A DNA stretch of 63,963 nucleotides, filler included, from an uncultured archaeon (lineage in GTDB: Archaea > Iainarchaeota > Iainarchaeia > Iainarchaeales > 1-14-0-10-31-34), in NCBI GenBank assembly GCA_964442255.1. It is 3 parts of 3 records of this genome, joined end to end, with 100 filler letters (N's around TTAATTAATTAA, not from the genome) between each part and the next. Parts side by side here need not be neighbours in the genome. Positions count along the whole stretch, not along the records: positions 1 to 28,579 come from CAYTYC010000015.1; 2 more parts are not named here. One strand, given 5' to 3'. The notes under the pieces are model-generated. The model was not told the DNA's origin and ran no database searches. It worked only from the letters and a program-made list of their open reading frames with translations. The position numbers and the translations under genes are program-made. Of the stretch, positions 1,324 to 63,948 are shown one piece after another; position 1 is the first letter of the stretch, and each line of letters starts with the position of its first letter.

Positions 1324-2283
1324 TTGCTGCACCCAAAGTACGCGAAAAGGGTTTACAGGAATTCACTTGGTTTGAAGGAATACGAGACTGTCCTGATTAT
1401 AACTGACGAAAAAATGCGGAAAATAGGCAGGGCTTTCTTTAAGGCTGCAAGGGAACTGGGGAACGAAGCGGTTTACGCGGAAATGGTTTCCCGTTCAATT
1501 GACGGGGAAGAGCCGCCAAAAATTATTTCGGATGCGATGAAAAAAGCGGACGTGATTGTTTTGGTCACGAGGCGGTCGCTTTCTCACACCAAGGCCAGGA
1601 GGGACGCAAACAAAAAGGGCGCAAGGATTGCATCCATGCCGGGCGTGACTGAAGGAATGCTTGAAAGAAACTATTACGCGGACTACAGGAAAATAAGGAA
1701 ACGCACAAAGGCAATAGCCCAGTATTTGAACAACGCAAAAAACGTGCGCATTCAAACAGACGCGGGAACAAACATTTCAATGAGCCTGGAGGGAAGGGGG
1801 CACGGAAACATTTTCAGCGGGCTTTACCGGAGAAAAGGAATCCGCGGAAACGTTCCCGCGGGGGAGGCGAGGCTTGCGCCGGTTGAAAAAACCGCTGAAG
1901 GCGTTTTTGTTGTTGACGCGTCCATGGCGGGAATAGGGAAAGTGCGTTCCCCCATCACCATAACCGTGGAAAAAGGCTATGCGACAAAGATTGAGGGAAA
2001 AAAGGACGCCGAAAAACTGAAAAGAATGCTGCAGGGAAAGCCAAAGGCCGCGTACAACATCGGTGAACTCGGGATAGGGACAAATGACAAGGCGGAAATA
2101 TCCGGAAGGGTTTTGGAGGACGAAAAAGTCCTTGGAACCGCGCACCTTGCATTGGGTGACAGCACTTCCTTCGGAGGAAAAGTGAAGACTTCCACGCACC
2201 TGGACGGGGTTTTCATGGATCCAACCATTTGGGTGGACGAAAAAATGGTTATGGACAAGGGAAAGCTTTTGGTTTTCGATTAA
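1324..2283 (+). CDS. M29 (AmpS/aminopeptidase T-like) metallopeptidase, copy 1
   Basis: GNVPAGE, GELGIGTN, LEDEKVLGTAHLALG, HLDGV; TTG start. Confidence 0.85.
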   Translation: MLHPKYAKRVYRNSLGLKEYETVLIITDEKMRKIGRAFFKAARELGNEAVYAEMVSRSIDGEEPPKIISDAMKKADVIVLVTRRSLSHTKARRDANKKGARIASMPGVTEGMLERNYYADYRKIRKRTKAIAQYLNNAKNVRIQTDAGTNISMSLEGRGHGNIFSGLYRRKGIRGNVPAGEARLAPVEKTAEGVFVVDASMAGIGKVRSPITITVEKGYATKIEGKKDAEKLKRMLQGKPKAAYNIGELGIGTNDKAEISGRVLEDEKVLGTAHLALGDSTSFGGKVKTSTHLDGVFMDPTIWVDEKMVMDKGKLLVFD

Positions 2284-2301
2284 CTTGGAGGTTTTTTTCC
2301 G

Positions 2302-3648
2302 GTGAAAAACGGAAAGAAAAACGGAAAAAAAAGGAAAAAGATTTTCACAATTGGAATGGAAATTGAAATGATGCTTTTGAACAGCTCAGGGCATGTTGTT
2401 GGAAAAGCGGACGAACTGCTTAAAAGAATCAATGAAAAGCATCCGGAAGTTGACGCGGTAAAGGAATGCGGAAGGCACATGATTGAATTAAGGGTAAAGC
2501 CTTTTGAGGACGTGGCCAGAACCTCGTTGAATATGGTGGAAGGCCTTGAAAAAACCTCAGAGGTTGCAAGGGAGATGGATTTGCATTTGTTTCCGCACGG
2601 CACCTATCCCGGAGACTTTGACCCTCCAATGCGCTTGAAGGGAAAGTACGCTGCACAGGTAAAGGTCTTCGGGCCGAGAAGGTGGAACATTGCCGGGCGC
2701 TGCACGGGCTTTCACTTCCATTACCGTTTGCCTTTTGGGGTGCTGGACAGCAGGACAAGGAAAATCAGGCCTTTGGCTGACTCAAAGGAAAAAGACGCAA
2801 TGATTAATTCCTATAATTTGATGCTTGCAATGGACCCCGTTGTTTCAACTTTAATGCAGTCCTCTCCCTTTTACAGGGGAAAATTTTACGGAAAAGACTC
2901 CCGTGCAATCTGGTACCGCGGGGATCCGGTATTCCGGAACAGGAAATCCCTTTACGCCAAACTCCCTCAACTTGGCGGGCTGCCGCTTTACATTTACACT
3001 GTGACAGACCTTATTGACAGGTATGACCTGAATTTCAGGAAATGGAGCGAAGCTGTTTTGGGCCTGGGAATGGATGTTAAAACACTCAGGCATTACAGGG
3101 ATGTTTCCGACACCTCCTGGAATCCTGTAAGGGTGAATGATTTGGATACGCTTGAGCAGAGGGGAATGGACATGAACCACCCCAAGTACCTTATTGGTGC
3201 GACTGTCTTGCTTAGCTCTGTGCTTAAAAAAAACCAGGAGCAGTATTGGGAAGTTAAGCCATCCGATATCGGAATAAAAGAGCCTTTTAAGAAAGAGGGA
3301 AAAACCATTTACCTCCCCCCAAGGACCCCGCTGAGGAAAAAGCTTCAGCTGCTTTCCGCAACAAAGGGATTTGAAAGTGGGGAAGTTTACCATTACTGCA
3401 AAAGGTTTTTTTCTTTTGCAAGGAAAACAGTCTGCAAGAAAGACCGCACTGCGCTGCGCAGGCTGGAATACCTGTTCAGGAGAAAGAAAACCGTTTCAGA
3501 TATTGTCATCAGAAGGGCGAAAAGAAAGGGTTACGGAGTGAAGGAAGTTCTGCCGAATGAAGTGGCGGCTGAAATGGCGTTAAAGAGCGCGGAACAGGTT
3601 TTGGTTGAAATTCGGCAGGTAAAGCGCGTTATAGAGAAGATGTGCTGA
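2302..3648 (+). CDS. Glutamate-cysteine ligase family 2 (GCS2) carboxylate-amine ligase, copy 1
   Basis: TIGMEIE, MIELRV, GFHFH, SSPFY-G, WNPVR, TLEQRGMD. Confidence 0.8.
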   Translation: MKNGKKNGKKRKKIFTIGMEIEMMLLNSSGHVVGKADELLKRINEKHPEVDAVKECGRHMIELRVKPFEDVARTSLNMVEGLEKTSEVAREMDLHLFPHGTYPGDFDPPMRLKGKYAAQVKVFGPRRWNIAGRCTGFHFHYRLPFGVLDSRTRKIRPLADSKEKDAMINSYNLMLAMDPVVSTLMQSSPFYRGKFYGKDSRAIWYRGDPVFRNRKSLYAKLPQLGGLPLYIYTVTDLIDRYDLNFRKWSEAVLGLGMDVKTLRHYRDVSDTSWNPVRVNDLDTLEQRGMDMNHPKYLIGATVLLSSVLKKNQEQYWEVKPSDIGIKEPFKKEGKTIYLPPRTPLRKKLQLLSATKGFESGEVYHYCKRFFSFARKTVCKKDRTALRRLEYLFRRKKTVSDIVIRRAKRKGYGVKEVLPNEVAAEMALKSAEQVLVEIRQVKRVIEKMC

Positions 3649-3693: not shown

Positions 3694-4653
3694 ATGCTTC
3701 ACCCCAAATACGCGAAAAGGATTCTCATTAATTCCCTTGGGTTAAAGGAAGGCGAAACCGTCCTGGTTGTGACTGATGAAAAGCTGCGCGTAATCGGAAA
3801 GGCTTTTTTTAAGGCAGCGAGGTCCATGGGAAACGTCGCGGTTTACAGTGAAATGCCGCCCGGAAAAACAAACGGGGAAGAGCCGCCCAAAATGGTTGCA
3901 GAGGCAATGAAAAAGGCGGACGTGATTGCAATGGTTACCCGGACTTCTTTGACCCACACCAAGGCCAGGAGGGACGCAAACAAAAAGGGCGCAAGGATTG
4001 CTTCAATGCCCAACGTGAACGAGGAAATGCTTGAAAGAAATTATTACGCGGACTACCGGAAAATAAGGAAAAGGACGAAGGCGATTGCGGAGTACATTGA
4101 CAGGGGAAAAAGCGCGAGAATCCGGACAGACGCGGGAACAAACATTTCAATGAGCATTGAAGGCAGGGAACACGGCCCGATTTTAAGCGGATGGTATCAC
4201 AGGAAAGGAGTCCGCGGAAACATTCCCGCAGGGGAAACCCATGTTGCGCCTGTGGAGGGAACAAGCGAGGGGGTGTTTGTTGTTGACGCTTCCATGGGCG
4301 TGATTGGAAGGGTTCGTTCGCCAATCACGATTACCGTGGAAAAAGGCCATGCGACAAAGATTGAGGGAAAAAAGGACGCCAAAAAACTGAAGAGGCTTTT
4401 GCAGGGAAAGCCGAAGGCCGCGTACAATGTCGGCGAATTCGGAATTGGAACAAATGACAAGGCTGAAGTGCATGGAATTGTTTTGGAGGACGAAAAAGTC
4501 CTTGGAACCGCGCACCTTGCATTGGGTGACAGCACTTCCTTCGGAGGAAAAGTAAAGGTTTCCTCGCATCTTGATGGAGTGTTCCACGATCCAACCATAT
4601 GGGTTGACGAAAAAATGATAATGAAGAAAGGAAAGCTGTTAATACAGTACTAG
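3694..4653 (+). CDS. M29 metallopeptidase, copy 2
   Basis: Close paralog of 1324-2283 with the same length and motifs. Confidence 0.85.
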   Translation: MLHPKYAKRILINSLGLKEGETVLVVTDEKLRVIGKAFFKAARSMGNVAVYSEMPPGKTNGEEPPKMVAEAMKKADVIAMVTRTSLTHTKARRDANKKGARIASMPNVNEEMLERNYYADYRKIRKRTKAIAEYIDRGKSARIRTDAGTNISMSIEGREHGPILSGWYHRKGVRGNIPAGETHVAPVEGTSEGVFVVDASMGVIGRVRSPITITVEKGHATKIEGKKDAKKLKRLLQGKPKAAYNVGEFGIGTNDKAEVHGIVLEDEKVLGTAHLALGDSTSFGGKVKVSSHLDGVFHDPTIWVDEKMIMKKGKLLIQY

Positions 4654-4658
4654 TTTGA

Positions 4659-6011
4659 GTGGTGAAAAGGTTGGCAAACAACGGCAAAAAAAAGAAGAAA
4701 GTCATTTTCACTATTGGAATGGAAGTGGAGATGATGCTTTTAAACAACTCAGGGCACGTTGTTTCCAAAGCGGATGAACTGAAAAAAAAGCTGAAAAAAA
4801 AGTTTCCGGAAGTTGACGCAACAAAGGAAGCCGGAAGGCACATGTTTGAACTCCGCGTACTGCCGCACCACGAGGTTTCCCGAACGGCGCTGAATTTATT
4901 GGACGGCTTGGGGAAAACCGCGGAAGTCGCGCGCGAAATGGATTTGCATTTGTTTCCTCACGGCACTTACCCGGGGGAATTTGACCCGCAGATGAGAAGC
5001 ACAGGGCAGTACGCGGTTAAAGAAAAGATTTTTGGGCCAAGAAGATGGAGGATTGCTGGAAGGTGCACCGGGTTTCATTTCCATTACCGCGTTCCGTTCG
5101 GGGTGCTGGACAGAAAAAAGCTTATGCTCAGGCCCTTGACGAAATCCAAGGAAAAAGAGTCCCTGATTAATTCTTATAATTTGATGCTTGCAATGGACCC
5201 CGTTGTTTCAACTTTAATGCAGTCCTCTCCCTTTTACCAGGGAAAATTTTACGGAAAAGATTCAAGGGCGATTTGGTACCGCGGCGACCCCGCACTCAAA
5301 AACCCGAAAGCCCTTTACTCCAAGTTTCCAAGAATGGGGGGCCTGCCGGTTTACATTCAAACCGGGGCTGACCTAATCAACCGCTACAGGGGAAACTTCC
5401 GGAAATGGAAGGAAATAATGGTTGAAGCGGGGCTGAAGGAAAGCATGATACGGCGCTACAAAAGTTCTTTGGATACTGCGTGGAATCCTTTGAGGGTGAA
5501 CAAGCTTGGAACGCTTGAGCAGAGGGGAATGGACATGAACCACCCAAAATACATTATCGGCTCAACCCTTCTTTTGAGTTCAGTCCTTAAGCACAACCAG
5601 GAAGAGTACTGGAATGTAAAGCCCTCGGATATTGGAATAAAGGACCCGTTCAAAAAAGAGGGAAAAACGTTGTACATTGCCCCCCGCACTGAGGTAAAGC
5701 AAAAACTGCAGATGCTTTCCGCTTGCAAGGGTTTTGAAAGCAAAGAGGTTTACCATTACTGCAAGCATTTCTTCAAGTTTGCGAGGGGCTGCATGAAGAA
5801 AAAAGACCGCACGGCTTTGAGGAGGGTAGAGTACTTGTTCAGGAGAAAGAAAACGGTTTCCGATATCCTGATTAGGCGCGCCAAAAAAATGGGTTACTCC
5901 AAAAAGGATTCCCTTCCAAAGGATGCCGCGGCTGAAATGGCTTTGAAGAGCGCGGAACAGGTTTTGGTTGAAATTCCGCAGGTTAAAAGGGTAATGGAAA
6001 AGATGGTGTGA
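4659..6011 (+). CDS. GCS2 carboxylate-amine ligase, copy 2
   Basis: Paralog of 2302-3648 with the same catalytic motifs. Confidence 0.8.
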   Translation: MVKRLANNGKKKKKVIFTIGMEVEMMLLNNSGHVVSKADELKKKLKKKFPEVDATKEAGRHMFELRVLPHHEVSRTALNLLDGLGKTAEVAREMDLHLFPHGTYPGEFDPQMRSTGQYAVKEKIFGPRRWRIAGRCTGFHFHYRVPFGVLDRKKLMLRPLTKSKEKESLINSYNLMLAMDPVVSTLMQSSPFYQGKFYGKDSRAIWYRGDPALKNPKALYSKFPRMGGLPVYIQTGADLINRYRGNFRKWKEIMVEAGLKESMIRRYKSSLDTAWNPLRVNKLGTLEQRGMDMNHPKYIIGSTLLLSSVLKHNQEEYWNVKPSDIGIKDPFKKEGKTLYIAPRTEVKQKLQMLSACKGFESKEVYHYCKHFFKFARGCMKKKDRTALRRVEYLFRRKKTVSDILIRRAKKMGYSKKDSLPKDAAAEMALKSAEQVLVEIPQVKRVMEKMV

Positions 6012-11453: not shown

Positions 11454-11617
11454 TGCTCCGACCGGGATTCGAACCCGGGTTATTGGCTTTCCTCAAAGCG
11501 CCTGAGAAATATTATCGGGATATCAAGCGTAAGCGAGATATCCCACGTATCTCGGCACACCCGACCGAAACCGGGTTTGAAAGGCCAATGTGCTTAACCG
11601 GACTACACTATCGGAGC
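11454..11617 (-). tRNA. tRNA-Glu(TTC) with 89-nt intron at 37/38 (11489-11577)
   Basis: Acceptor GCTCCGA/TCGGAGC, anticodon arm TTGGC-CT-TTC-A|A-GCCAA, T-loop GGTTCGAATCC. Confidence 0.92.
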
Positions 11618-11717: not shown

Positions 11718-11885
11718 ATGGCAAAGTTTGAGCAGGCAGAGAAAAGGCTTTTCGCGAACGTATGGGTCTGCATGAAATGCAACGCAAAGAACAGGAGCAC
11801 GCCTGGAAAAAAGCCGGAAAGGTGCAGAAAATGCCACGGCAAAAACCTGAGGCTGAAAAGAAAGGCTTCAAAGAAGGCAAAGTAA
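11718..11885 (+). CDS. rpl40e: 50S ribosomal protein L40e, 55 aa, not in ORF track
   Basis: [25 protein letters not shown]...[15 protein letters not shown]. Confidence 0.9.
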
Positions 11886-12769
11886 TGCCCTTAATTGATT
11901 ACTGGAAAATTCTGCGCCCAAAAAACTGTGCAATCGCGTCTTTCGGCGCGTTCATAGGCTACTGCCTGACTCACGGAATAATGGCCTTCAATCCCCTGAT
12001 CGGGCTTGGAATGGCAACCGTTTTCATTATTTGCGGCGCAGGACAGGCAATAAACGACTACTTTGACCTGCAAATTGACAGGAAAATAAAGCCCCAAAGG
12101 CCGCTTGCAGCCGGAAGAATGAAACCGGAAAACGCCTATTATTTTGCTGTGGCACTGTTTGTGCTTGGAATAATTTTGTCTGCGTTCATTAATTACACCG
12201 CGCTGGCGATAGCCGTGGTGTTCAGCTTCCTTTTGTACGCTTACTCGGCTTTCCTTGGAAAATACAAATTCATCGGAAACTGGGTTGTTGCCTCCGGAAC
12301 AGCCTTCACCCTGGTTTTTGGTTCAGCGGTTGCAAGAAATTATTTCTTTTATTTTTTTCTTCCAAAGGGAACAATTCTTTTGGGGAGGCCTGCGGCGGAG
12401 GCGTTTTTTCTTCCTCTGGTGCTGGCGTTTGCCGCGCTGTTTGCGAACGCGGCAAGGGAAATCATAAAGGATTCGGAGGACTTAAGCGGCGACAAGGGAA
12501 AAAAGAAAACCCTTCCGCAAATGGTTTCCCGGAAAACGGTTAAGGCGGTTGTAGCCTCTCTTTATTCCATGACAATAGTGGCTGCGTTGATTCCGCTTTT
12601 CCTGGGGATTTTCTCCAACGTATTTTACCTTTCACTGGTTTCGCTTTCAATTCTTGCCTTTATTTATTCTTTTATTTTGCTGCTTAAAAATTCCCTCCAC
12701 AAAAGCCAAATTTCTTCCAAGGCAGGAATGTTTTTGGGGCTGACTGCGTTCCTATTGGGTTTAATTTAA
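11885..12769 (+). CDS. Digeranylgeranylglyceryl phosphate synthase (UbiA family)
   Basis: LRPKNC, AINDYFDLQIDR-KPQRPL, REIIKDSEDLSGD; start coupled to the L40e stop. Confidence 0.85.
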   Translation: MPLIDYWKILRPKNCAIASFGAFIGYCLTHGIMAFNPLIGLGMATVFIICGAGQAINDYFDLQIDRKIKPQRPLAAGRMKPENAYYFAVALFVLGIILSAFINYTALAIAVVFSFLLYAYSAFLGKYKFIGNWVVASGTAFTLVFGSAVARNYFFYFFLPKGTILLGRPAAEAFFLPLVLAFAALFANAAREIIKDSEDLSGDKGKKKTLPQMVSRKTVKAVVASLYSMTIVAALIPLFLGIFSNVFYLSLVSLSILAFIYSFILLLKNSLHKSQISSKAGMFLGLTAFLLGLI

Positions 12770-12790: not shown

Positions 12791-13729
12791 TTGTTCATGC
12801 GCGAACACGTTTTGGCGAAAGCCTTTGCGGTTCTCCAAAGTAAAGGGTTTGGCGTAAGTTCTTTCCTTCACACAAACTCGTGCTTTGATTTGCTTGCAAA
12901 GCGGGGAAAAACAATTTTTTTGCTGAAGGTGTTTGAAAACATTGACGCCTTAAGGGAGGACCAGGCAAGGGAGTTAATGCATTTGAGCAGCGCATTCAAC
13001 GCCCATTCCCTTGTGTTGGGGGAAAAAACCAAGGCATTTGAATTAAGGCCGAACACGGTTTACGAGCGCTACTCCCTTCCGGTTGTTTCGGTTGAAACAT
13101 TCGGAAAGCTTTTGGATGACTCCTTTCCGGAAGTAAAATACTTCAAGGGAAAAGCGGTTGTGGAGCTGGATTCAGAGGGCTTAAGGAAAGCGAGGCAAAG
13201 GCTTTCACTGAGTTTGGAGGAAGTTGCCGACAAAATACATTCATCCAGGGAAACCCTGTACAGGTACGAGCACGGGCACTCCGCTTCTTTGGAAACAGCA
13301 AAAAAACTGGAAAAGGTTTTGAAGGAGAACCTGATTAAAAGCGATTCCTCTTTGAGGGACTTTTTTGGGGACTTTGAAAAGGATTACGGGTTTGCGCTTG
13401 ACGAATTCCCTGAGTTCTCGGATTCAGCGCTGGAGAAAATCCACGAACTTGGCTTACGGGTATCGGTTTTCAAGCACGCCCCTTTCCGTGCGTTTTCGGA
13501 TTCAGAGGAAATGCTTTTGATTGGAAGGGGACGGGAAAAAAGCGAGTTAAACCGGAAAGCGGAAAGCCTGCAAAAATCAAGGGAAATGCTTGGGCCGCAT
13601 TCAATGCTTGTGGCAAAAAGGTTTGGCCACGAAAAAATCGGGTTCATTCCGGTCATAAGGGAAGAGGAACTGGACTCTTTTTCCAAAGGAAAAGACCTGT
13701 TAAGGGAAGTGAAAAAAAGGGAAAAATAA
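12791..13729 (+). CDS. Archaeal Cro/C1-type HTH transcriptional regulator
   Basis: CFDLLA, LLKVFENID, VYERY, HTH LSLEEVA-SRETLYRYE, HAPF. Confidence 0.8.
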   Translation: MFMREHVLAKAFAVLQSKGFGVSSFLHTNSCFDLLAKRGKTIFLLKVFENIDALREDQARELMHLSSAFNAHSLVLGEKTKAFELRPNTVYERYSLPVVSVETFGKLLDDSFPEVKYFKGKAVVELDSEGLRKARQRLSLSLEEVADKIHSSRETLYRYEHGHSASLETAKKLEKVLKENLIKSDSSLRDFFGDFEKDYGFALDEFPEFSDSALEKIHELGLRVSVFKHAPFRAFSDSEEMLLIGRGREKSELNRKAESLQKSREMLGPHSMLVAKRFGHEKIGFIPVIREEELDSFSKGKDLLREVKKREK

Positions 13730-22638: not shown

Positions 22639-22795
22639 GCCCCGGTAGCTTAGCGGTAGAGCAGNNNNNNNNNNNNNNNNNNNNNNNNNNNNNNNNNNNN
22701 NNNNNNNNNNNNNNNNNNNNNNNNNNNNNNNNNNNNNNNNNNNNNNNNNNNNNNNNNNNNNNNNCAGGTCAGCGGTTCAAATCCGCTCTGGGGCG
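22639..22795 (+). tRNA. tRNA with anticodon arm lost in a 100-N gap (possibly tRNA-Asn, possibly intron-containing)
   Basis: 5' GCCCCGGTAGCTTAGCGGTAGAGC and 3' CAGGTCAGCGGTTCAAATCCGCTCTGGGGCG. Identity is guessed only from the GCC start and G discriminator. Confidence 0.8.
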
Positions 22796-24619: not shown

Positions 24620-25843
24620 TTAAGCGTATTTCAGTTTTTGGTTTGTTTGCTTTAGTGAATGCAGTGCCAGTTGTTTCATGAATAATTCGAAGTGTTTGTC
24701 GTTTCTTTTCTTTGAAAGCTTGGTTAAGCCCATGTATTGTTCAATGAAGCCCGCGGGAAAAGCTATTAAAGGAAGACCTTTCGCTATCAGGGTGTGCGCA
24801 AAGGTTGCTCTTGCGGTTCTTGAGTTTCCGTCAACAAAGGGGTGGATTCTCTGGAATTCGCTGTGCAAATAGGAAGCCAGTTCGATTGCTTCAAATGATT
24901 TCAATTTTTTGGAAATGTTTTCCGAATAAAAGGTAAACAAGTCATTCAGTTTTGCTGGAACTTCTCTCCAGTCAGCTGTCTTAAAGTCAGGGTTTCCCTT
25001 TATTTTCACGTTTTGTTTTCTTATTGTTCCGGCCCCTTTTTTAAGGGAATTCATTGCAATTCCATGGAACAGCAAAACTATTTTCAAATCCAAGGCAGTT
25101 TTGTCGGCAATTAAGCTGTCCAAGGCCTTCTTGTAATCCATTGTTTCCTGCAGTTCCCTGAATGTAGCCGTTTTCGGGGGAATGTTTTCTTTAATCAGGC
25201 GCTCTGTTTCAGGCAAAGTTAAAGTGTTTCCTTCAAGTGAAAGGCTCCTGTGAATAAACCTGACTTCATCATCAATGCTAACCTGCTTTGACGACTTTTT
25301 AAAGACAGAAAATTCCTTTTCAACCAGTGAATTCAGCTTTTCTTCGTTGACTTCCTCAAAGATTTTGCCGCATCCCAACTTCACTTTTGGTTTGAATAAT
25401 TCCACCACGTTCTCCAGAAAAGAGGAATAAACGATTCTTGCAGTGAAAGGCTTTTTGGATTCAATTAAAATAAAGCCGTGTTTTGACAAAAAAGCTGCAA
25501 TCCTTGAAATTGTTTTGTTGTCAAAAGGTAAACCAGTTAAAAGCTTATTTTTCAAGCCCAATTCAATGAATTCTACTGTTTTCTCCATGAACAATTCATT
25601 GTACGAAATGCGGTTTCTGAAACAGAAGTCAATTGTTCCAACGAATTTTTTTGCCTCATCAGTTTCTCTAAGAAAGAACTTCTTTTGCCTGGCTTCAATC
25701 AGGCCATCTTCTTCCAGCTGTTTCAGGTGCTTGTAAAACTTGCCATACTCAAGCTGCGTCTTGCCCAATTTTTTGACCAGTTGCGAAGCAGTCAATCCCC
25801 CATTAAGAAAAACAGAGTAAAGCAAGTCATATTTTGAAACCAT
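24620..25843 (-). CDS. Fic family protein with N-terminal winged-helix
   Basis: HPFVDGNSRTAR, SLSLEGN. Confidence 0.92.
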   Translation of the reverse strand: MVSKYDLLYSVFLNGGLTASQLVKKLGKTQLEYGKFYKHLKQLEEDGLIEARQKKFFLRETDEAKKFVGTIDFCFRNRISYNELFMEKTVEFIELGLKNKLLTGLPFDNKTISRIAAFLSKHGFILIESKKPFTARIVYSSFLENVVELFKPKVKLGCGKIFEEVNEEKLNSLVEKEFSVFKKSSKQVSIDDEVRFIHRSLSLEGNTLTLPETERLIKENIPPKTATFRELQETMDYKKALDSLIADKTALDLKIVLLFHGIAMNSLKKGAGTIRKQNVKIKGNPDFKTADWREVPAKLNDLFTFYSENISKKLKSFEAIELASYLHSEFQRIHPFVDGNSRTARATFAHTLIAKGLPLIAFPAGFIEQYMGLTKLSKKRNDKHFELFMKQLALHSLKQTNQKLKYA

Positions 25844-27117: not shown

Positions 27118-27290
27118 GCAGGGGTGGCGGAGTGGTTTAACGCGGCAGCCTGCTAACGCGGTTTCGCCCGCGTGCGACGAGATACGTCAAGGGGTTTCCC
27201 TTTGGTCAACCCCTTATAAATATGTTTTTTGTTGCAAGGCAGAAAGCTGTTGCCCTTATGGGCGCGCGAGTTCGAATCTCGCCCCCTGCG
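27118..27290 (+). tRNA. tRNA-Ser(GCT) with 89-nt intron at 37/38 (27156-27244)
   Basis: Acceptor GCAGGGG/CCCCTGC, arm GCAGC-CT-GCT-A|A-GCTGT, long variable arm, BHB helix CTGC/GCAG. Confidence 0.92.
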
Positions 27291-28319: not shown

Positions 28320-28511
28320 GGCGGGATACCGAAGTGGCCAAACGGGTCAGACTCAAGTGAACTTTTTTAGAAAAAAAGTTTAATCAAAAAAAGCTTTTTG
28401 AGAAAAAGCTTTAGCAAAAACCTCCGCTTACGCGGAGAAAAACTTTTGATGAATTGTTTGGAGAGATCTGATGGCTTAGTGCCTTCGGGGGTTCGAATCC
28501 TCCTCCCGCCA
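28320..28511 (+). tRNA. tRNA-Leu(CAA) with 108-nt repeat-derived intron (28358-28465)
   Basis: Acceptor GGCGGGA/TCCCGCC, arm TCAGA-CT-CAA-G|A-TCTGA, variable arm, GGTTCGAATCC. Confidence 0.9.
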
Positions 28512-28579
28512 AAACTTTTTTGGAAAAAAAGTTTTATCAAAAAAATTCTGCCTTCGGCAGTAAAACTTTTTGGAAAAAA
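28511..28579 (+). repeat. Modular hairpin repeat at contig end
   Basis: AAACTTTTTTGGAAAAAAAGTTTTATCAAAA and CTGCCTTCGGCAG. Confidence 0.85.
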
Positions 28580-28679
28580 NNNNNNNNNNNNNNNNNNNNN
28601 NNNNNNNNNNNNNNNNNNNNNNNTTAATTAATTAANNNNNNNNNNNNNNNNNNNNNNNNNNNNNNNNNNNNNNNNNNNN
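28580..28679. other. Artificial contig linker (N-TTAATTAATTAA-N)
   Basis: Six-frame-stop spacer inside Ns; identical at 57000-57099. Confidence 0.9.
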
Positions 28680-28772
28680 TTTTGAAAAGTTTCTCCGCCG
28701 AAGGCGACCCTTTTTGATCAAACTTTTTTGAAAAAAGTTTGTTTTGATGAAACTTTTTCCCAAAAAGTTTCC
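28680..28772 (-). repeat. Modular hairpin repeat, inverted, truncating the NYN gene
   Basis: Reverse complement matches the modules at 1-72. Confidence 0.85.
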
Positions 28773-29121
28773 CCCTTAAGGAAGCCGTCTACTTTTCCAA
28801 CACAGGAACCACAAAAACCTGCAGATTTTTTCGCGTCTTCCACTCTTTTGTCCACTTTGACGTATTTGAGTTTTCTGTGCCTAATCACTAACCCAGGAAT
28901 CTGTTTCTTTAGTTTTTCATGGAATTTTTGCTGGCCCGCATACTGTTCCGGCTCTATTTTAAGACTTTTAATCGCGTCATAGAAGAAAGACCTTTGAATG
29001 TTAAACTTTTTTGACAGTTCTGAATAAAACCAGCCGTATTCAAAACAACCAAATATTTTGTTTTGCTTCAACCCATGGTAAAGGTTTGAACCGTCAATAA
29101 ACAAGTAGCTTTTTTTTTCAT
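28718..29121 (-). pseudogene. Truncated NYN domain gene
   Basis: FIDGSNLYHGL present, EKGVD and SGDSD absent. The C-terminus reads into the repeat. The ATG at 29121 is out of frame across an A9 tract. Confidence 0.75.
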
Positions 29122-32291: not shown

Positions 32292-32331
32292 AAACTTTTA
32301 GAAAAAGTTTTATCAAAAAATGCCTTCGGCA
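32292..32331 (+). repeat. Short copy of the modular hairpin repeat
   Basis: AAACTTTTAGAAAAAGTTTTATCAAAAAATGCCTTCGGCA. Confidence 0.85.
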
Positions 32332-48452: not shown

Positions 48453-49213
48453 TTCCCTTCACCTTTTTCCGCCGTAATGCGGGCCTTTTTAGTAAAGCCT
48501 TTTTCCAAAAAGCTTTTTTCCAGCACCAGCTCGTATCCCGCGGAAATGAATTTGTGCAAAAAGTCTTTTGGCTTTGACTCCTTAACCCTGAAATGCGGCC
48601 TGAAGAAACCGCCAAAACCCACTTCCCAGGGCCAGGGCACGGAGCAATGCGTCCTGTCAGGATTGAACTGAACCCTGAATTCGCCTATCCTGAGGTTAAA
48701 AAGTTTCCTGTTAAGTGACTCAATCCTTTCCCTTTCCCAGTTCAAAAAACGGGGAAACTGGAACAGTTTCGTGGGAAGATCCACGAACAGCAGGCCGCCG
48801 TCCTTCAAACACCGCGCGGCCTGTTCCAGGCTTTTTTTCGGCTCCCGAAAATGCTCCAATGAATGCTCCATTAAAATCACGTCAAAAAATTTTTCCTTAA
48901 ACGGCCATTTTTTTGCCGCATCCAATGCAAACACATTCCTCAAACCCTTTTTTCCTGCCTCTTTCACGGCATGCGTGCTCACATCAATTCCGTAAACCTC
49001 AAACTCTTTTTCCATTGCCTTCAGGTAATGGCCGTACGCGCAGCCCACATCCAGAAATTTTCCGCCTTTCCTGTGCTTCAGAATTTTTTCCCTGACCTCC
49101 TTCAGCCTCCTGTTTCCCCCATTGCCCGGAAAAAAGTTTTCCGCATAGGAAACACGCTTTCCGTTCCTTAAGCCATAGTTCCTGAAGTACTCTTCCTCAA
49201 ACCCTTTTTTCAT
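48449..49213 (-). CDS. Class I SAM-dependent methyltransferase
   Basis: LDVGCAYG, HSLEHF; likely start MKKGFEEEYF. Confidence 0.88.
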   Translation of the reverse strand: MKKGFEEEYFRNYGLRNGKRVSYAENFFPGNGGNRRLKEVREKILKHRKGGKFLDVGCAYGHYLKAMEKEFEVYGIDVSTHAVKEAGKKGLRNVFALDAAKKWPFKEKFFDVILMEHSLEHFREPKKSLEQAARCLKDGGLLFVDLPTKLFQFPRFLNWERERIESLNRKLFNLRIGEFRVQFNPDRTHCSVPWPWEVGFGGFFRPHFRVKESKPKDFLHKFISAGYELVLEKSFLEKGFTKKARITAEKGEGK

Positions 49214-54470: not shown

Positions 54471-54679
54471 CTATTAATATGCGTTGGTTTAATTGGATTC
54501 CTGACATCTATTAATATGCGTTGGTTTAATTGGATTCCTGACATCTATTAATATGCGTTGGTNNNNNNNNNNNNNNNNNNNNNNNNNNNNNNNNNNNNNN
54601 NNNNNNNNNNNNNNNNNNNNNNNNNNNNNNNNNNNNNNNNNNNNNNNNNNNNNNNNNNNNNNTTAATTGGATTCCCAAC
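54471..54679 (+). repeat. 37-bp tandem repeat spanning a scaffold gap
   Basis: CTATTAATATGCGTTGGTTTAATTGGATTCCTGACAT at 54471, 54508 and 54545 (partial), resuming after the Ns. Confidence 0.8.
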
Positions 54680-55167
54680 ATGGAAAGCATTTAAGTGTTT
54701 CTGTTCGCTGAAAAGCGAAACTCACACGATGCCGGTCTTTATTGGCAACACCGGTTTTTGCCAATGCCCCGGAAAAGGCTTCCTGAACAGTGAACAGTTT
54801 CCCGAACAGGAAACAAGCCAATCAGGAATACCACGCATATTCTGAATTTTTCGGCTAATGCTGAAAGCGCGCAGCCGCCCCCAAAAGCCCCAAAATTATC
54901 TCCGGATACAACCCGAAAAATTTGCACATTATTACTGGTTGGGCCCCGAAAAATTTTGTCCCTTTCAACGGCCAAAGACTCTGAAAATATGTCCGTTGTG
55001 ATAACCATGCGCAAAAACAGGAAAAGACAAGCAAGACATTCAAGAACTGTTAAAACTGGAAATCAACGAAAAAAAATTGAATGAATTGCTTGAAAAAACA
55101 GGATTCAAAAAAACTCTTCAGCGAAACAATAAAAGAACCTGAAAACAATTAAACTGCCTTCACCTTA

Positions 55168-55284
55168 ATTAAAGGCTTTGGCTTCACAGGCTTTTCCCCG
55201 GGCTCAAACACGACACTCAAATTGTCTATAACCAGTTTTCCCGCGCTTTCAGAGTAAGCCTGAACCGGAATTTCACAGGTTTGC
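55168..55284. repeat. 117-bp exact direct repeat (copy 2 at 56883-56999) encoding a gene 3' end on the minus strand
   Basis: Identical sequence; translates QTCEIPVQAYSESAGKLVIDNLSVVFEPGEKPVKPKPL. Confidence 0.9.
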
Positions 55285-56815: not shown

Positions 56816-56999
56816 CTAAAAAAATGGCGGCAAAAAAAAAGGCTATCCCGCAAAAACCCTTTTTCAACCCAAAACAGGCTTCATTAAAGGCTTTGGCTTC
56901 ACAGGCTTTTCCCCGGGCTCAAACACGACACTCAAATTGTCTATAACCAGTTTTCCCGCGCTTTCAGAGTAAGCCTGAACCGGAATTTCACAGGTTTGC

Positions 57000-57099
57000 N
57001 NNNNNNNNNNNNNNNNNNNNNNNNNNNNNNNNNNNNNNNNNNNTTAATTAATTAANNNNNNNNNNNNNNNNNNNNNNNNNNNNNNNNNNNNNNNNNNNN
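57000..57099. other. Artificial contig linker
   Basis: N-TTAATTAATTAA-N. Confidence 0.9.
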
Positions 57100-62708: not shown

Positions 62709-62909
62709 TTAAGGGGAAAAAAGGAATCCGGAAAAGAAGTCCATCACCTTTTCTTTCCCAAATTATTTTGCCCCAGTTAAGGGGAAAAAAGGAATCCGGA
62801 AAAGAAGTCCATTGCCTTTTCTTTCCCAAATTATTTTGCCCCAGTTAAGGGGAAAAAAGGAATCCGGAAAAGAAGTCCATCACCTTTTTTTTCTCAAATT
62901 CCTTTGCCC
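62709..62909. repeat. 68-bp tandem triplication of the GT4 gene 3' end
   Basis: TTAAGGGGAAAAAAGGAATCCGGAAAAGAAGTCCAT at 62709, 62777 and 62845. Confidence 0.9.
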
Positions 62910-63948
62910 TTTGGAGGGCATTGCGTGAGAGCACCTTATGCCTTGAGCGCATTTCCCTGATTGCCTCCGCGATTCCGGAAACGTTTTCAGGGTCAACCGT
63001 TATTCCCGCGTTTCCCACGACCCATGGAATGGGCTGAACCGAGCTTGCAACAGCGGGCTTTCCGCTTGCAAAGGCTTCGGTTAAAACCATTCCAAACCCT
63101 TCGCTCAAGGCAAGCAAAACAAAGGCGTCCGCGGAATTGTACAATTTCGGGAGGGTTTCATCGGAAACAAAGCCAAGAAACTTCACCCTTTCCCCCAGGC
63201 CCAGTTCGTTTGCAAGCCTTTGGTAGTCTTCGCCTTCAACCTCCCTTCCCGCGAGAAGAAGCCTGACGTCCTTGCCTGTCTTCTGCATTGCCCGCAAAAG
63301 GAAGGGAATTCCCTTGAGGCGGGAAATTCTCCCGACATGAAGCAAGGTAAAGCTTTTTTCCAGGCCGAATTTTTTAACAAGCGCCTTGTCTTTTTTTCCG
63401 GGCCTGAACCTTTTCAAGTCAACAAAGCCGGGGGTAAGGAAAACATTTTTCATCGGCACGCCGAAACTTTCGGAAACCATTTTTCTTGTGGGCTCCGCAA
63501 GGGTGGAGATTTTAATGTTCCGGAAAAGGGGCTTAAGGAAACTTAATTTGGAGATTCTTTTGCAGGCGTTGGGCTCGTAAATTGAAACCCTGCATTTTTT
63601 TCCAAAAAGCTTTGCCAACAAAATGGAGGCAATTGATGGAGGCAAAGTGTAAACTCCATAAAACAATCCAACCCTATTACGTAACGAAAAAAGAAAAACA
63701 CTGAAAAAATAAGCAAGTGTCCTTACAAAAGGATTGAAAAGGAATGGACTCCAAAAAAGTTTTACTTTGATTCCTTCTTTTTCCCATATTTCAGTTTCCC
63801 TTGAAGTTATTTTCCTGTTCCAGTTCGGGGAAAAAACGAACACGTTGTGCCCTTCCGATTTAAGCCTTTTTGAAACCTCAAAAATGAGGTTGTTTGTGCC
63901 CTCCATGTGCTTTGCCGCGGAAAACTCAACCAAAATGAAGACATTCAT
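62845..63948 (-). CDS. GT4 glycosyltransferase
   Basis: GRISRLKG, EGFGMVLTEAFASG. Confidence 0.9.
   Translation of the reverse strand: MNVFILVEFSAAKHMEGTNNLIFEVSKRLKSEGHNVFVFSPNWNRKITSRETEIWEKEGIKVKLFWSPFLFNPFVRTLAYFFSVFLFSLRNRVGLFYGVYTLPPSIASILLAKLFGKKCRVSIYEPNACKRISKLSFLKPLFRNIKISTLAEPTRKMVSESFGVPMKNVFLTPGFVDLKRFRPGKKDKALVKKFGLEKSFTLLHVGRISRLKGIPFLLRAMQKTGKDVRLLLAGREVEGEDYQRLANELGLGERVKFLGFVSDETLPKLYNSADAFVLLALSEGFGMVLTEAFASGKPAVASSVQPIPWVVGNAGITVDPENVSGIAEAIREMRSRHKVLSRNALQRAKEFEKKKVMDFFSGFLFSP

Follow-up and report, generated by a model that had tools for sequence, protein, structure and literature searches.

Why would two tRNA genes that are otherwise unrelated carry long introns that resemble one another? 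The question is raised by a stretch of 63,963 nucleotides of DNA (hereafter the window) from an uncultured archaeon of the Iainarchaeales (assembly GCA_964442255.1), in which a tRNA-Glu gene and a tRNA-Ser gene are each interrupted in the anticodon loop by an insert of 89 nt. To our knowledge, most introns of archaeal tRNAs are short spacers, and a function is well understood only where the intron carries a box C/D guide. A first-pass annotation of the window had proposed that the two inserts are homologous introns with a conserved fold, belonging to a wider and perhaps mobile family of tRNA-intron RNAs. Here we report that the two are a real pair of homologous, structured introns, and we weigh what maintains the fold that they have in common.

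Two homologous introns and their common fold

Both genes are recognised by the Rfam tRNA model and by ARAGORN, the latter in the case of tRNA-Ser after splicing. The tRNA-Glu(UUC) gene lies at 11454-11617 on the minus strand (exon 1, 11578-11617; intron, 11489-11577; exon 2, 11454-11488), and the tRNA-Ser(GCU) gene at 27118-27290 on the plus strand (exon 1, 27118-27155; intron, 27156-27244; exon 2, 27245-27290). They score 53.1 and 43.8 bits, respectively, with the Rfam model, which leaves a 91-nt unaligned insert in each anticodon loop. Because ARAGORN in its default setting is blind to such introns and returns no gene in the window, we used its intron mode, which recovers tRNA-Glu(ttc) and puts its 89-nt intron at position 37/38, exactly where the first-pass annotation had placed it, and labels the unspliced tRNA-Ser gene wrongly, as Ala. 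When the introns are cut out in silico, ARAGORN calls a tRNA-Glu(ttc) of 75 nt and a tRNA-Ser(gct) of 84 nt, both with standard cloverleafs. The Ser splice register may slide by one A with no change to the product, as judged from the sequence; a covariance model built from the two introns (R1) aligned 27155-27244. Together, the intron-mode call, the Rfam inserts and the clean spliced products confirm that both introns are 89 nt long, occupy the canonical position 37/38 and have the coordinates originally assigned to them.

The introns are most alike at their 5′ ends. Aligned without gaps, they agree at 26 of the first 32 positions (81%), at 17 of the other 56 (~30%) and at 43 of 88 overall; in a MAFFT alignment, 47 of the 90 columns are invariant, and 26 of these 47 fall in columns 2-33. 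The 5′ parts thus align as had been claimed, with a count of 26/32 in place of the 27/32 first given. The pattern of this 5′ block occurs twice in the window and not once in 100 shuffles. The runs GGUUUCG and CGAGAUACGU are identical in the two introns, and the six differences within the block all fall in the helix P1, in or beside the P1 loop, or in the helix P2.

tRNA-Glu is a class I and tRNA-Ser a class II tRNA. Because their mature bodies are identical at 44/86 positions in a global alignment, as against 26/32 in the 5′ block, duplication of a whole gene fails to explain the likeness of the introns; since the host tRNAs are unrelated, it is the intron that would have been copied or exchanged between genes. 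The conserved block, the identical length and the common fold described below support the homology proposed earlier, and we regard the Glu and Ser sequences as very probably homologous spliced introns.

The layout of the fold is the same in both. P1 begins at intron nt 1-2 and P2 stands directly behind it; an internal loop sets UACGU opposite an AAUAU-containing strand; beyond the loop lies the 8-bp helix P3 with a 2-bp hairpin at its tip, and a 9-nt tail ends the intron. In the Glu intron (minus strand), alignment and fold together place the 5′ block (nt 1-33) at 11545-11577, with P1 at 11559-11576, the 5′ strand of P2 at 11550-11558 and the invariant UACGU at 11545-11549. P3 and its tip hairpin occupy 11517-11544 in the minimum free energy (MFE) fold, and the 3′ part (11489-11516) comprises the AAUAU-containing loop strand (11508-11516), the 3′ strand of P2 (11498-11507) and the tail, 11489-11497, which pairs with the anticodon loop. 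In the Ser intron (plus strand), alignment and fold place the 5′ block at 27156-27188 (P1, 27156-27173; P2 5′ strand, 27174-27182; invariant UACGU, 27183-27187); P3 with its tip hairpin folds at 27189-27215, and the 3′ part (27216-27244) holds the AAUAU loop strand, a U-rich P2 3′ strand (27225-27235) and the tail, 27236-27244, which enters a 4-bp central helix with the anticodon loop.

We then asked how well this fold has been kept. Folded alone, the Glu intron reaches -35.2 kcal/mol (z -3.54, with 1 of 200 shuffles as good) and the Ser intron -33.2 kcal/mol (z -2.96, with 0 of 200 as good). Counted in the register of the structure, 25/25 pairs are kept between the two: 11 have the same letters in both, 5 differ on one side and 9 on both, and none is broken; RNAalifold, run on the MAFFT alignment, similarly returns 23 pairs, of which 9 are compensatory on both sides and 0 broken. 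The rewriting is greatest in P3, where 6 of the 8 pairs differ on both sides between Glu and Ser and all still pair, and it extends into the 5′ block, where P1 carries one compensatory exchange of C-G for G-C. Among 20,000 dinucleotide-preserving shuffles of Ser nt 33-80, a P3-like 8-bp stem falls in place 562 times and a P2 of 9/9 pairs 173 times, but both together only 6 times. Further, both introns fold more strongly in the sense than in the antisense orientation (Glu, -35.2 versus -31.2 kcal/mol; Ser, -33.2 versus -30.7 kcal/mol): in P2 a conserved 5′ strand faces a 3′ strand that has drifted towards U, and the resulting G-U pairs cost Ser its P2 in antisense.

These measurements support two claims of the first-pass annotation, that the fold is kept through compensatory changes and that G-U pairs favour the sense strand. 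The tip of P3 that it described is also present in both introns, although the loop of the Ser tip can be drawn with either 3 or 4 nt. We consider it likely that the RNA fold is under selection.

One further feature touches this fold. The UUUCG of the P1 loop and the CGAGA that opens P2b, both invariant, are complementary (Glu, 11566-11570 with 11550-11554, minus strand; Ser, 27162-27166 with 27178-27182, plus strand), and to judge by this complementarity an alternative pairing or pseudoknot could form, which might help to explain the conservation of sequence there.

The splice site and a proposed role in cis

How would such an insert be removed? In both introns, positions 32-35 of the anticodon loop and the 3′ tail of the intron form a 4-bp central helix, with 4/4 pairs in each case (CG, UG, UA and UG in Glu; CG, UA, GC and CG in Ser). 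A 3-nt bulge, AAA, carries the 3′ splice site, and a 3-nt strand, CAA in Glu and UAA in Ser, carries the 5′ site. Folds constrained to this bulge-helix-bulge (BHB) form lie at most 3.2 (Glu) and 2.4 (Ser) kcal/mol from the MFE. The strict hBHBh′ form, which calls for at least 2 bp of outer helix h′ past the 5′ bulge, does not extend to these introns, in either of which only 1 of the 4 candidate pairs of h′ is contiguous. Because h′ is absent and P1 begins at this point, the 5′ site comes to lie in a three-way junction, whose joining strands measure 3, 0 and 3 nt in both introns, with P1 starting from intron nt 2 and P2 following without a linker. As modelled, the splice site is a relaxed form of the BHB motif that resembles a bulge-helix-loop (BHL). 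Relaxed motifs of the types hBH, HBh′ and BHL are cleaved by (alpha-beta)2 and epsilon2 splicing endonucleases (EndA), and alpha4 EndAs with an L3 loop in DPANN lineages accompany more tRNA gene disruption, according to the relevant passages of PMC5829648.

We lean slightly towards the reading that these are paralogous introns spliced by EndA, that the copying took place at the level of DNA, and that the fold is selected mainly as a scaffold in cis for the relaxed splice site. One intron would have been copied into, or exchanged with, the other tRNA gene long ago, and its RNA fold would thereafter have been maintained by selection. The P1-P2-P3 scaffold would act mainly in cis, compacting an unusually long insert and fixing the geometry of the BHL-like site for the archaeal splicing endonuclease, which would remove both introns. 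Excised archaeal introns are circularised by RtcB, and the excised 89-mer would probably share this fate. That the cis role is the main reason for the conservation is, in our estimation, an evenly balanced proposition. We count in favour of the reading as a whole that the intron of a third gene on the same contig, tRNA-Leu(CAA), likewise opens with a hairpin at the splice site.

Several points weigh on the other side. Full-length identity is ~50%, whether taken from the 43/88 positions or the 47/90 MAFFT columns, and so lies under the 70-80% full-length thresholds used to cluster the cross-isotype intron families of the Thermoproteales (section 2.5 of preprint 10.64898/2026.10.13.758758). The unequal divergence along the introns, 81% identity followed by 30%, could reflect partial gene conversion. 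Two sequences are too few for statistical covariation of the R-scape type, and the null model of the shuffles does not include any general pressure on long introns towards hairpins. A purely structural role in cis leaves unexplained the invariant letters of the loops and junctions beside a rewritten P3, a combination that fits sequence-specific recognition by a protein or an RNA at least equally well. Finally, no homolog was found in three collections of genomes and contigs, a search to which we now turn.

The search for relatives and rival explanations

To look for further members of the module, we ran R1 unfiltered over the whole window. The two introns score 102.8 and 99.3 bits and the next best match 14.7 bits; there is no further copy in the 64 kb, and none outside tRNA genes there. 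We also scanned three collections by exact match to 21 conserved loop and junction positions (GGTTTCG-N11-13-GAGATACGT-N25-40-AATAT), a pattern that recovers both copies in the window. Among 185,579 GTDB species genomes it occurs at 3 loci, all bacterial; among JGI metagenome contigs, with the same 21 positions and the gap widened to N24-42, at 8 loci; and among IMG/VR viral contigs, with a looser pattern of 16 positions, at 30 loci. All 41 loci are chance matches: none has the P1/P2 context, and R1 scores reach at most 12.5 bits (3 hits at E≤1). ARAGORN finds no tRNA in the 11 genome and metagenome loci. A search of IMG/VR loci by way of the regulator protein encoded near tRNA-Glu gave 103 pattern matches, 0 of which were confirmed.

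This regulator, of the PRK04140 type (12791-13729), has its closest relatives in a collection of 5.8 billion proteins at no more than 51% identity, and those of its relatives that are named come from metagenome-assembled genomes (MAGs) labelled Diapherotrites, Micrarchaeota or plain 'archaeon'. The distance and the names of these relatives mark the host as a poorly sampled DPANN archaeon. Because matching was to an exact motif and sampled relatives come no closer than ~51% identity in this regulator, the blank scans are weak evidence and bear little on function. The first-pass annotation had held that a lack of further homologs would speak against a wider intron family; formally that is what we find, with no third member from R1 in the window or among the 41 loci, and the wider family is not borne out, weak as the blank is for the reasons just given. 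The module is at present a candidate structured tRNA-intron family with two members, and the argument that it is a functional RNA rests on two sequences. The suggestion that the intron is mobile also fared poorly: the copies are ~50% identical, their neighbours are ordinary and blastn searches return nothing meaningful, so that there is no sign of current mobility.

Known families do not account for the module either. With Rfam 15, only tRNA passes the gathering threshold in the window, and in the intron regions non-tRNA matches at E up to 10 score no higher than 19.6 bits, far below threshold and several of them on the wrong strand; the comparison with Rfam that had been proposed thus confirms that no family in that release matches the introns. 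Neither intron contains UGAUGA (C box), CUGA (D box) or an ACA box. The reported lack of C/D boxes is therefore correct, and identity as a box C/D small RNA or an H/ACA guide is rejected. A K-turn was rejected by eye only, there being no tandem G-A pairs conserved in both copies. A coding reading was likewise rejected, as the antisense open reading frames (ORFs) over the two introns share just 9 residues, which are the translated conserved block.

The two introns are not the only long inserts on this contig. The tRNA-Leu(CAA) gene (28320-28511, plus strand), found with ARAGORN in intron mode, has a 108-nt AT-rich intron at 28358-28465, again at 37/38. Spliced in silico, it is a clean tRNA-Leu(caa) of 84 nt by ARAGORN; the Rfam tRNA model misses the gene even at E≤10. 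Its intron is unrelated in sequence to those of Glu and Ser, with no R1 match at E≤10, and folds at -27.7 kcal/mol (z -3.72); it has three hairpins, the first of them at the 5′ splice site, and several T runs. The first 33 nt (28360-28392) recur, 31/33 identical, directly 3′ of the gene (28513-28545). Similar units, in which an AT-rich hairpin is followed by a run resembling AAAAAGTTT-A/T-ATCAAAAA, are scattered through intergenic DNA and occur at contig ends as well; they lie at 21-80, 28690-28775 (minus strand), 32294-32323, 48480-48540 (minus strand) and 63596-63625. Such units resemble terminator or promoter regions, and this resemblance in sequence suggests that the Leu intron may be built from intergenic sequence.

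Two smaller observations concern the same intron. UGAUGA stands near its 3′ end (28447-28452) and CUGA 15 nt downstream in exon 2 (28468-28471); Rfam models of the C/D small nucleolar RNA (snoRNA) type match weakly at these positions (17.9 bits, E 4.2), and these matches may mark a cryptic C/D-like element or be due to chance. A 9-mer, CGCUUACGC, is common to the tip of P3 in Glu and a hairpin of the Leu intron and occurs four times in the window against an expectation of 0.27; the other two copies fall where ORFs are listed, and we build no conclusion on it.

A fourth tRNA gene (22639-22795, plus strand) has a readable acceptor, D arm and T arm, and its anticodon arm lies inside a 100-N gap (22665-22764). 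Among the matches listed, Logan contigs overhang this gap by 42 and 65 nt, and on the strength of these overhangs we infer an insert that greatly exceeds the 15 nt an intron-less gene would have there. This gene, too, probably has a long intron, possibly a repeated one. Long inserts would then occur in 4/4 of the tRNA genes seen in the window, the fourth being counted from its overhangs.

Against this background, the alternative that survives best is that the module is itself a functional RNA, which we consider unlikely: an excised and probably circular 89-mer would bind a protein or an RNA through its GGUUUCG, GAGAUACGU and AAUAU loops, and the tRNA genes would serve only as hosts for its expression and processing, in the manner of the tRNA-Trp C/D intron or the animal tRNA intronic circular RNAs (tricRNAs). 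Invariant loops beside rewritten stems are the classic signature of such an RNA, and the conserved 5′ strand of P2 facing a partner that drifts to U, the folding preference for the sense strand and the failure of any Rfam family to explain the motif all fit it. Further, the tRNA-Trp C/D intron (in the account given in part of PMC4090602) and the metazoan tricRNAs (likewise in PMC4536317) are precedents that show that the mechanism exists. Set against this are the missing C/D and ACA boxes, the want (by eye) of conserved tandem G-A pairs, and the R1 and collection searches, which found the module nowhere in the window other than in tRNA genes and turned up no homolog in any of the three collections. 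In addition, the 5′ block is no more complementary to exon sequence of the four tRNAs than shuffled blocks are (z -1.8 to +1.2 in 16 comparisons). A function of the introns in trans is possible. We give rather less credence to the most far-reaching form of this idea, in which P1-P2-P3 would be a new class of structured RNA, housed in several tRNA introns of a deep DPANN lineage, released by EndA, circularised by RtcB and acting in trans through its invariant loops.

A second alternative, which we think improbable, is that the introns are scars of site-specific recombination between tRNA genes and mobile or integrative DNA, the common 5′ block and what comes after it being imported modules joined near AUACGU. 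What brings it into play is the pattern of contig matches in one Logan run (X1). One of its contigs stops at 27211 and the next begins at 27240, while three others, among the matches listed, match from 27182 onward and have unlike sequence upstream; the interval 27182-27211 is 30 nt, the overlap that branching in a 31-mer graph would produce, and the boundary is 5 nt short of where the block common to Glu and Ser ends. The break of the fourth tRNA gene exactly in its anticodon arm and the make-up of the Leu intron, from AT-rich intergenic hairpin units with its opening segment repeated just 3′ of the gene, would fit as well, and gain of introns through integration of mobile elements has been proposed for Caldiarchaeum (in the portion of PMC3293823 that bears on it). 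However, the compensatory changes across P1-P3 point to long-term selection on the fold, for which a scar has no need. No integrase or other mobile-element gene adjoins tRNA-Glu or tRNA-Ser among the neighbouring genes examined. Of four blastn searches of phage and plasmid records, three came back empty, and the other gave a 29-nt match (E = 0.7) to 4 Sinorhizobium plasmids that we take as chance. The contig evidence itself comes from one study, to which both of the sequencing runs listed for this DNA belong (two DNA runs and no RNA run), consists of match coordinates alone and derives from a run that is possibly the source of the window.

Separately, the same matches indicate that, in the source community, the part of the Ser intron that starts at AUACGU may also occur in other sequence contexts.

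The weakest alternative, that the resemblance is functionless and arose by recent partial gene conversion of the first third, with downstream hairpins that are generic to long BHB introns, draws on the sharp fall in identity after nt 33 (26/32 to 17/56), on the strong structure of the unrelated Leu intron (z -3.72), which makes structure alone unspecific, and on the lack of known homologs, but we hold it to be very improbable, as it must contend with total length (89 nt), helix lengths, junction lengths and tip layout that are the same in both introns, with the mere 6/20,000 shuffles in which P2 and P3 arise together, with a compensatory P1 change inside the block itself, and with the need for a conversion tract whose start coincides exactly with the splice site despite unrelated exons.

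Genomic setting and comparison with known systems

The window consists of concatenated MAG contigs. Two of its runs of N are 100-N scaffold gaps and the other two are joints composed of N44 + TTAATTAATTAA + N44; the four lie at 22665-22764, 28580-28679, 54563-54662 and 57000-57099. The tRNA-Glu and tRNA-Ser genes are both on the first piece (1-28579), that is, on one scaffold. The genes near them are ordinary ones, encoding cupins, a HIT protein, a PCMT methyltransferase and a Fic protein, and the gene at 11762-12769, which precedes that of the PRK04140-type regulator, encodes a prenyltransferase of the DGGGP-synthase type. The Fic/DOC domain belongs to a 407-aa protein encoded at 24620-25843 (minus strand), 1.3 kb upstream of tRNA-Ser, whose N-terminus gives a weak F-93-like winged-helix match below the Pfam cut-off.

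Elsewhere in the window there are several repeats. A cassette of two genes (a 319-aa ORF and, behind it, a carboxylate-amine ligase of ~450 aa resembling YbdK/GshA) is duplicated in tandem at 1324-3648 and 3694-6011 (73-80% DNA identity). A 68-nt unit is present three times in tandem at 62709-62912 (90-100% identical), and a direct repeat of 121 nt (99% identical) lies at 55164-55284 and 56879-56999, its second copy reaching the contig end. Tandem repeats of a ~42-nt unit at 54480-54562 run into the second 100-N scaffold gap.

How do the two introns compare with those already described? Similar introns across isodecoders are known in Thermoproteales, where they have been ascribed to large-scale transposition of introns at the level of DNA (Fujishima et al., 2010, as related in PMC4090602), and the cross-isotype families of the same order are described in the preprint section cited above. 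The novelty of shared introns is correspondingly lowered, since sharing between isotypes is already established there. There are points in common with those families: introns related in sequence, at least in the 5′ block, stand in different tRNA types of one genome, the host bodies are unrelated and the BHB context is kept. The present pair differs in lineage (DPANN), in length (89 nt, against archaeal medians that the pertinent part of PMC4090602 puts mostly at 12-25 nt) and in the extent of identity, which exceeds 80% in the first third only and is ~50% overall, with two members known. It differs also in the age of the copies, which are old enough to have accumulated compensatory changes in the stems; this points to a selected fold and not to recent spread. 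The pair therefore departs from the Thermoproteales families in lineage, intron length, copy age and structural constraint. Our literature search, which did not extend to supplementary intron tables, found no account of any DPANN intron that is long, structured and common to different isotypes.

Three other systems offer partial parallels. Like the box C/D guide in the archaeal tRNA-Trp intron, the module is a long, conserved, structured insert at the canonical site and is more than a spacer; unlike that guide, it has neither C nor D box and no Rfam snoRNA match on the sense strand, and it is common to two isotypes where the other is bound to one. With the relaxed BHB and BHL introns (those of ARMAN-2 epsilon2, of (alpha-beta)2 enzymes and of the DPANN alpha4 type with L3), it has in common a 3-nt bulge, a 4-bp helix, a second site in a loop or junction and a DPANN host. 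It differs from them in that a three-way junction, which a conserved P1 closes directly at the 5′ splice site, takes the place of the loop, an arrangement of which we found no description in those parts of the literature on relaxed EndA motifs that we consulted. Metazoan tricRNAs (PMC4536317), too, are stable structured RNAs freed from tRNA introns by a pathway of the EndA/RtcB type, but they are eukaryotic, and circularisation or accumulation of the present introns would be an analogy only.

If our preferred reading holds, copying of introns between tRNA types would extend beyond Thermoproteales, and some introns would be selected for a specific three-dimensional shape, either as a relaxed site that DPANN endonucleases can read or as a stable excised RNA. 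The invariant loops leave room for a possible trans-acting or protein-binding role. Were the module indeed a new class of trans-acting RNA, its loops would be a platform for protein binding or a pairing partner and the tRNA genes would be processing cassettes, and the other long inserts of the window would belong to a wider repertoire of intron-borne RNAs. With its Leu intron of intergenic hairpin units and its gap-broken tRNA gene, the contig is useful for studying how long tRNA introns originate, and with P1 at the 5′ site and junction strands of 3, 0 and 3 nt, the locus offers a concrete substrate for studying how an EndA of broad specificity reads junction-type sites.

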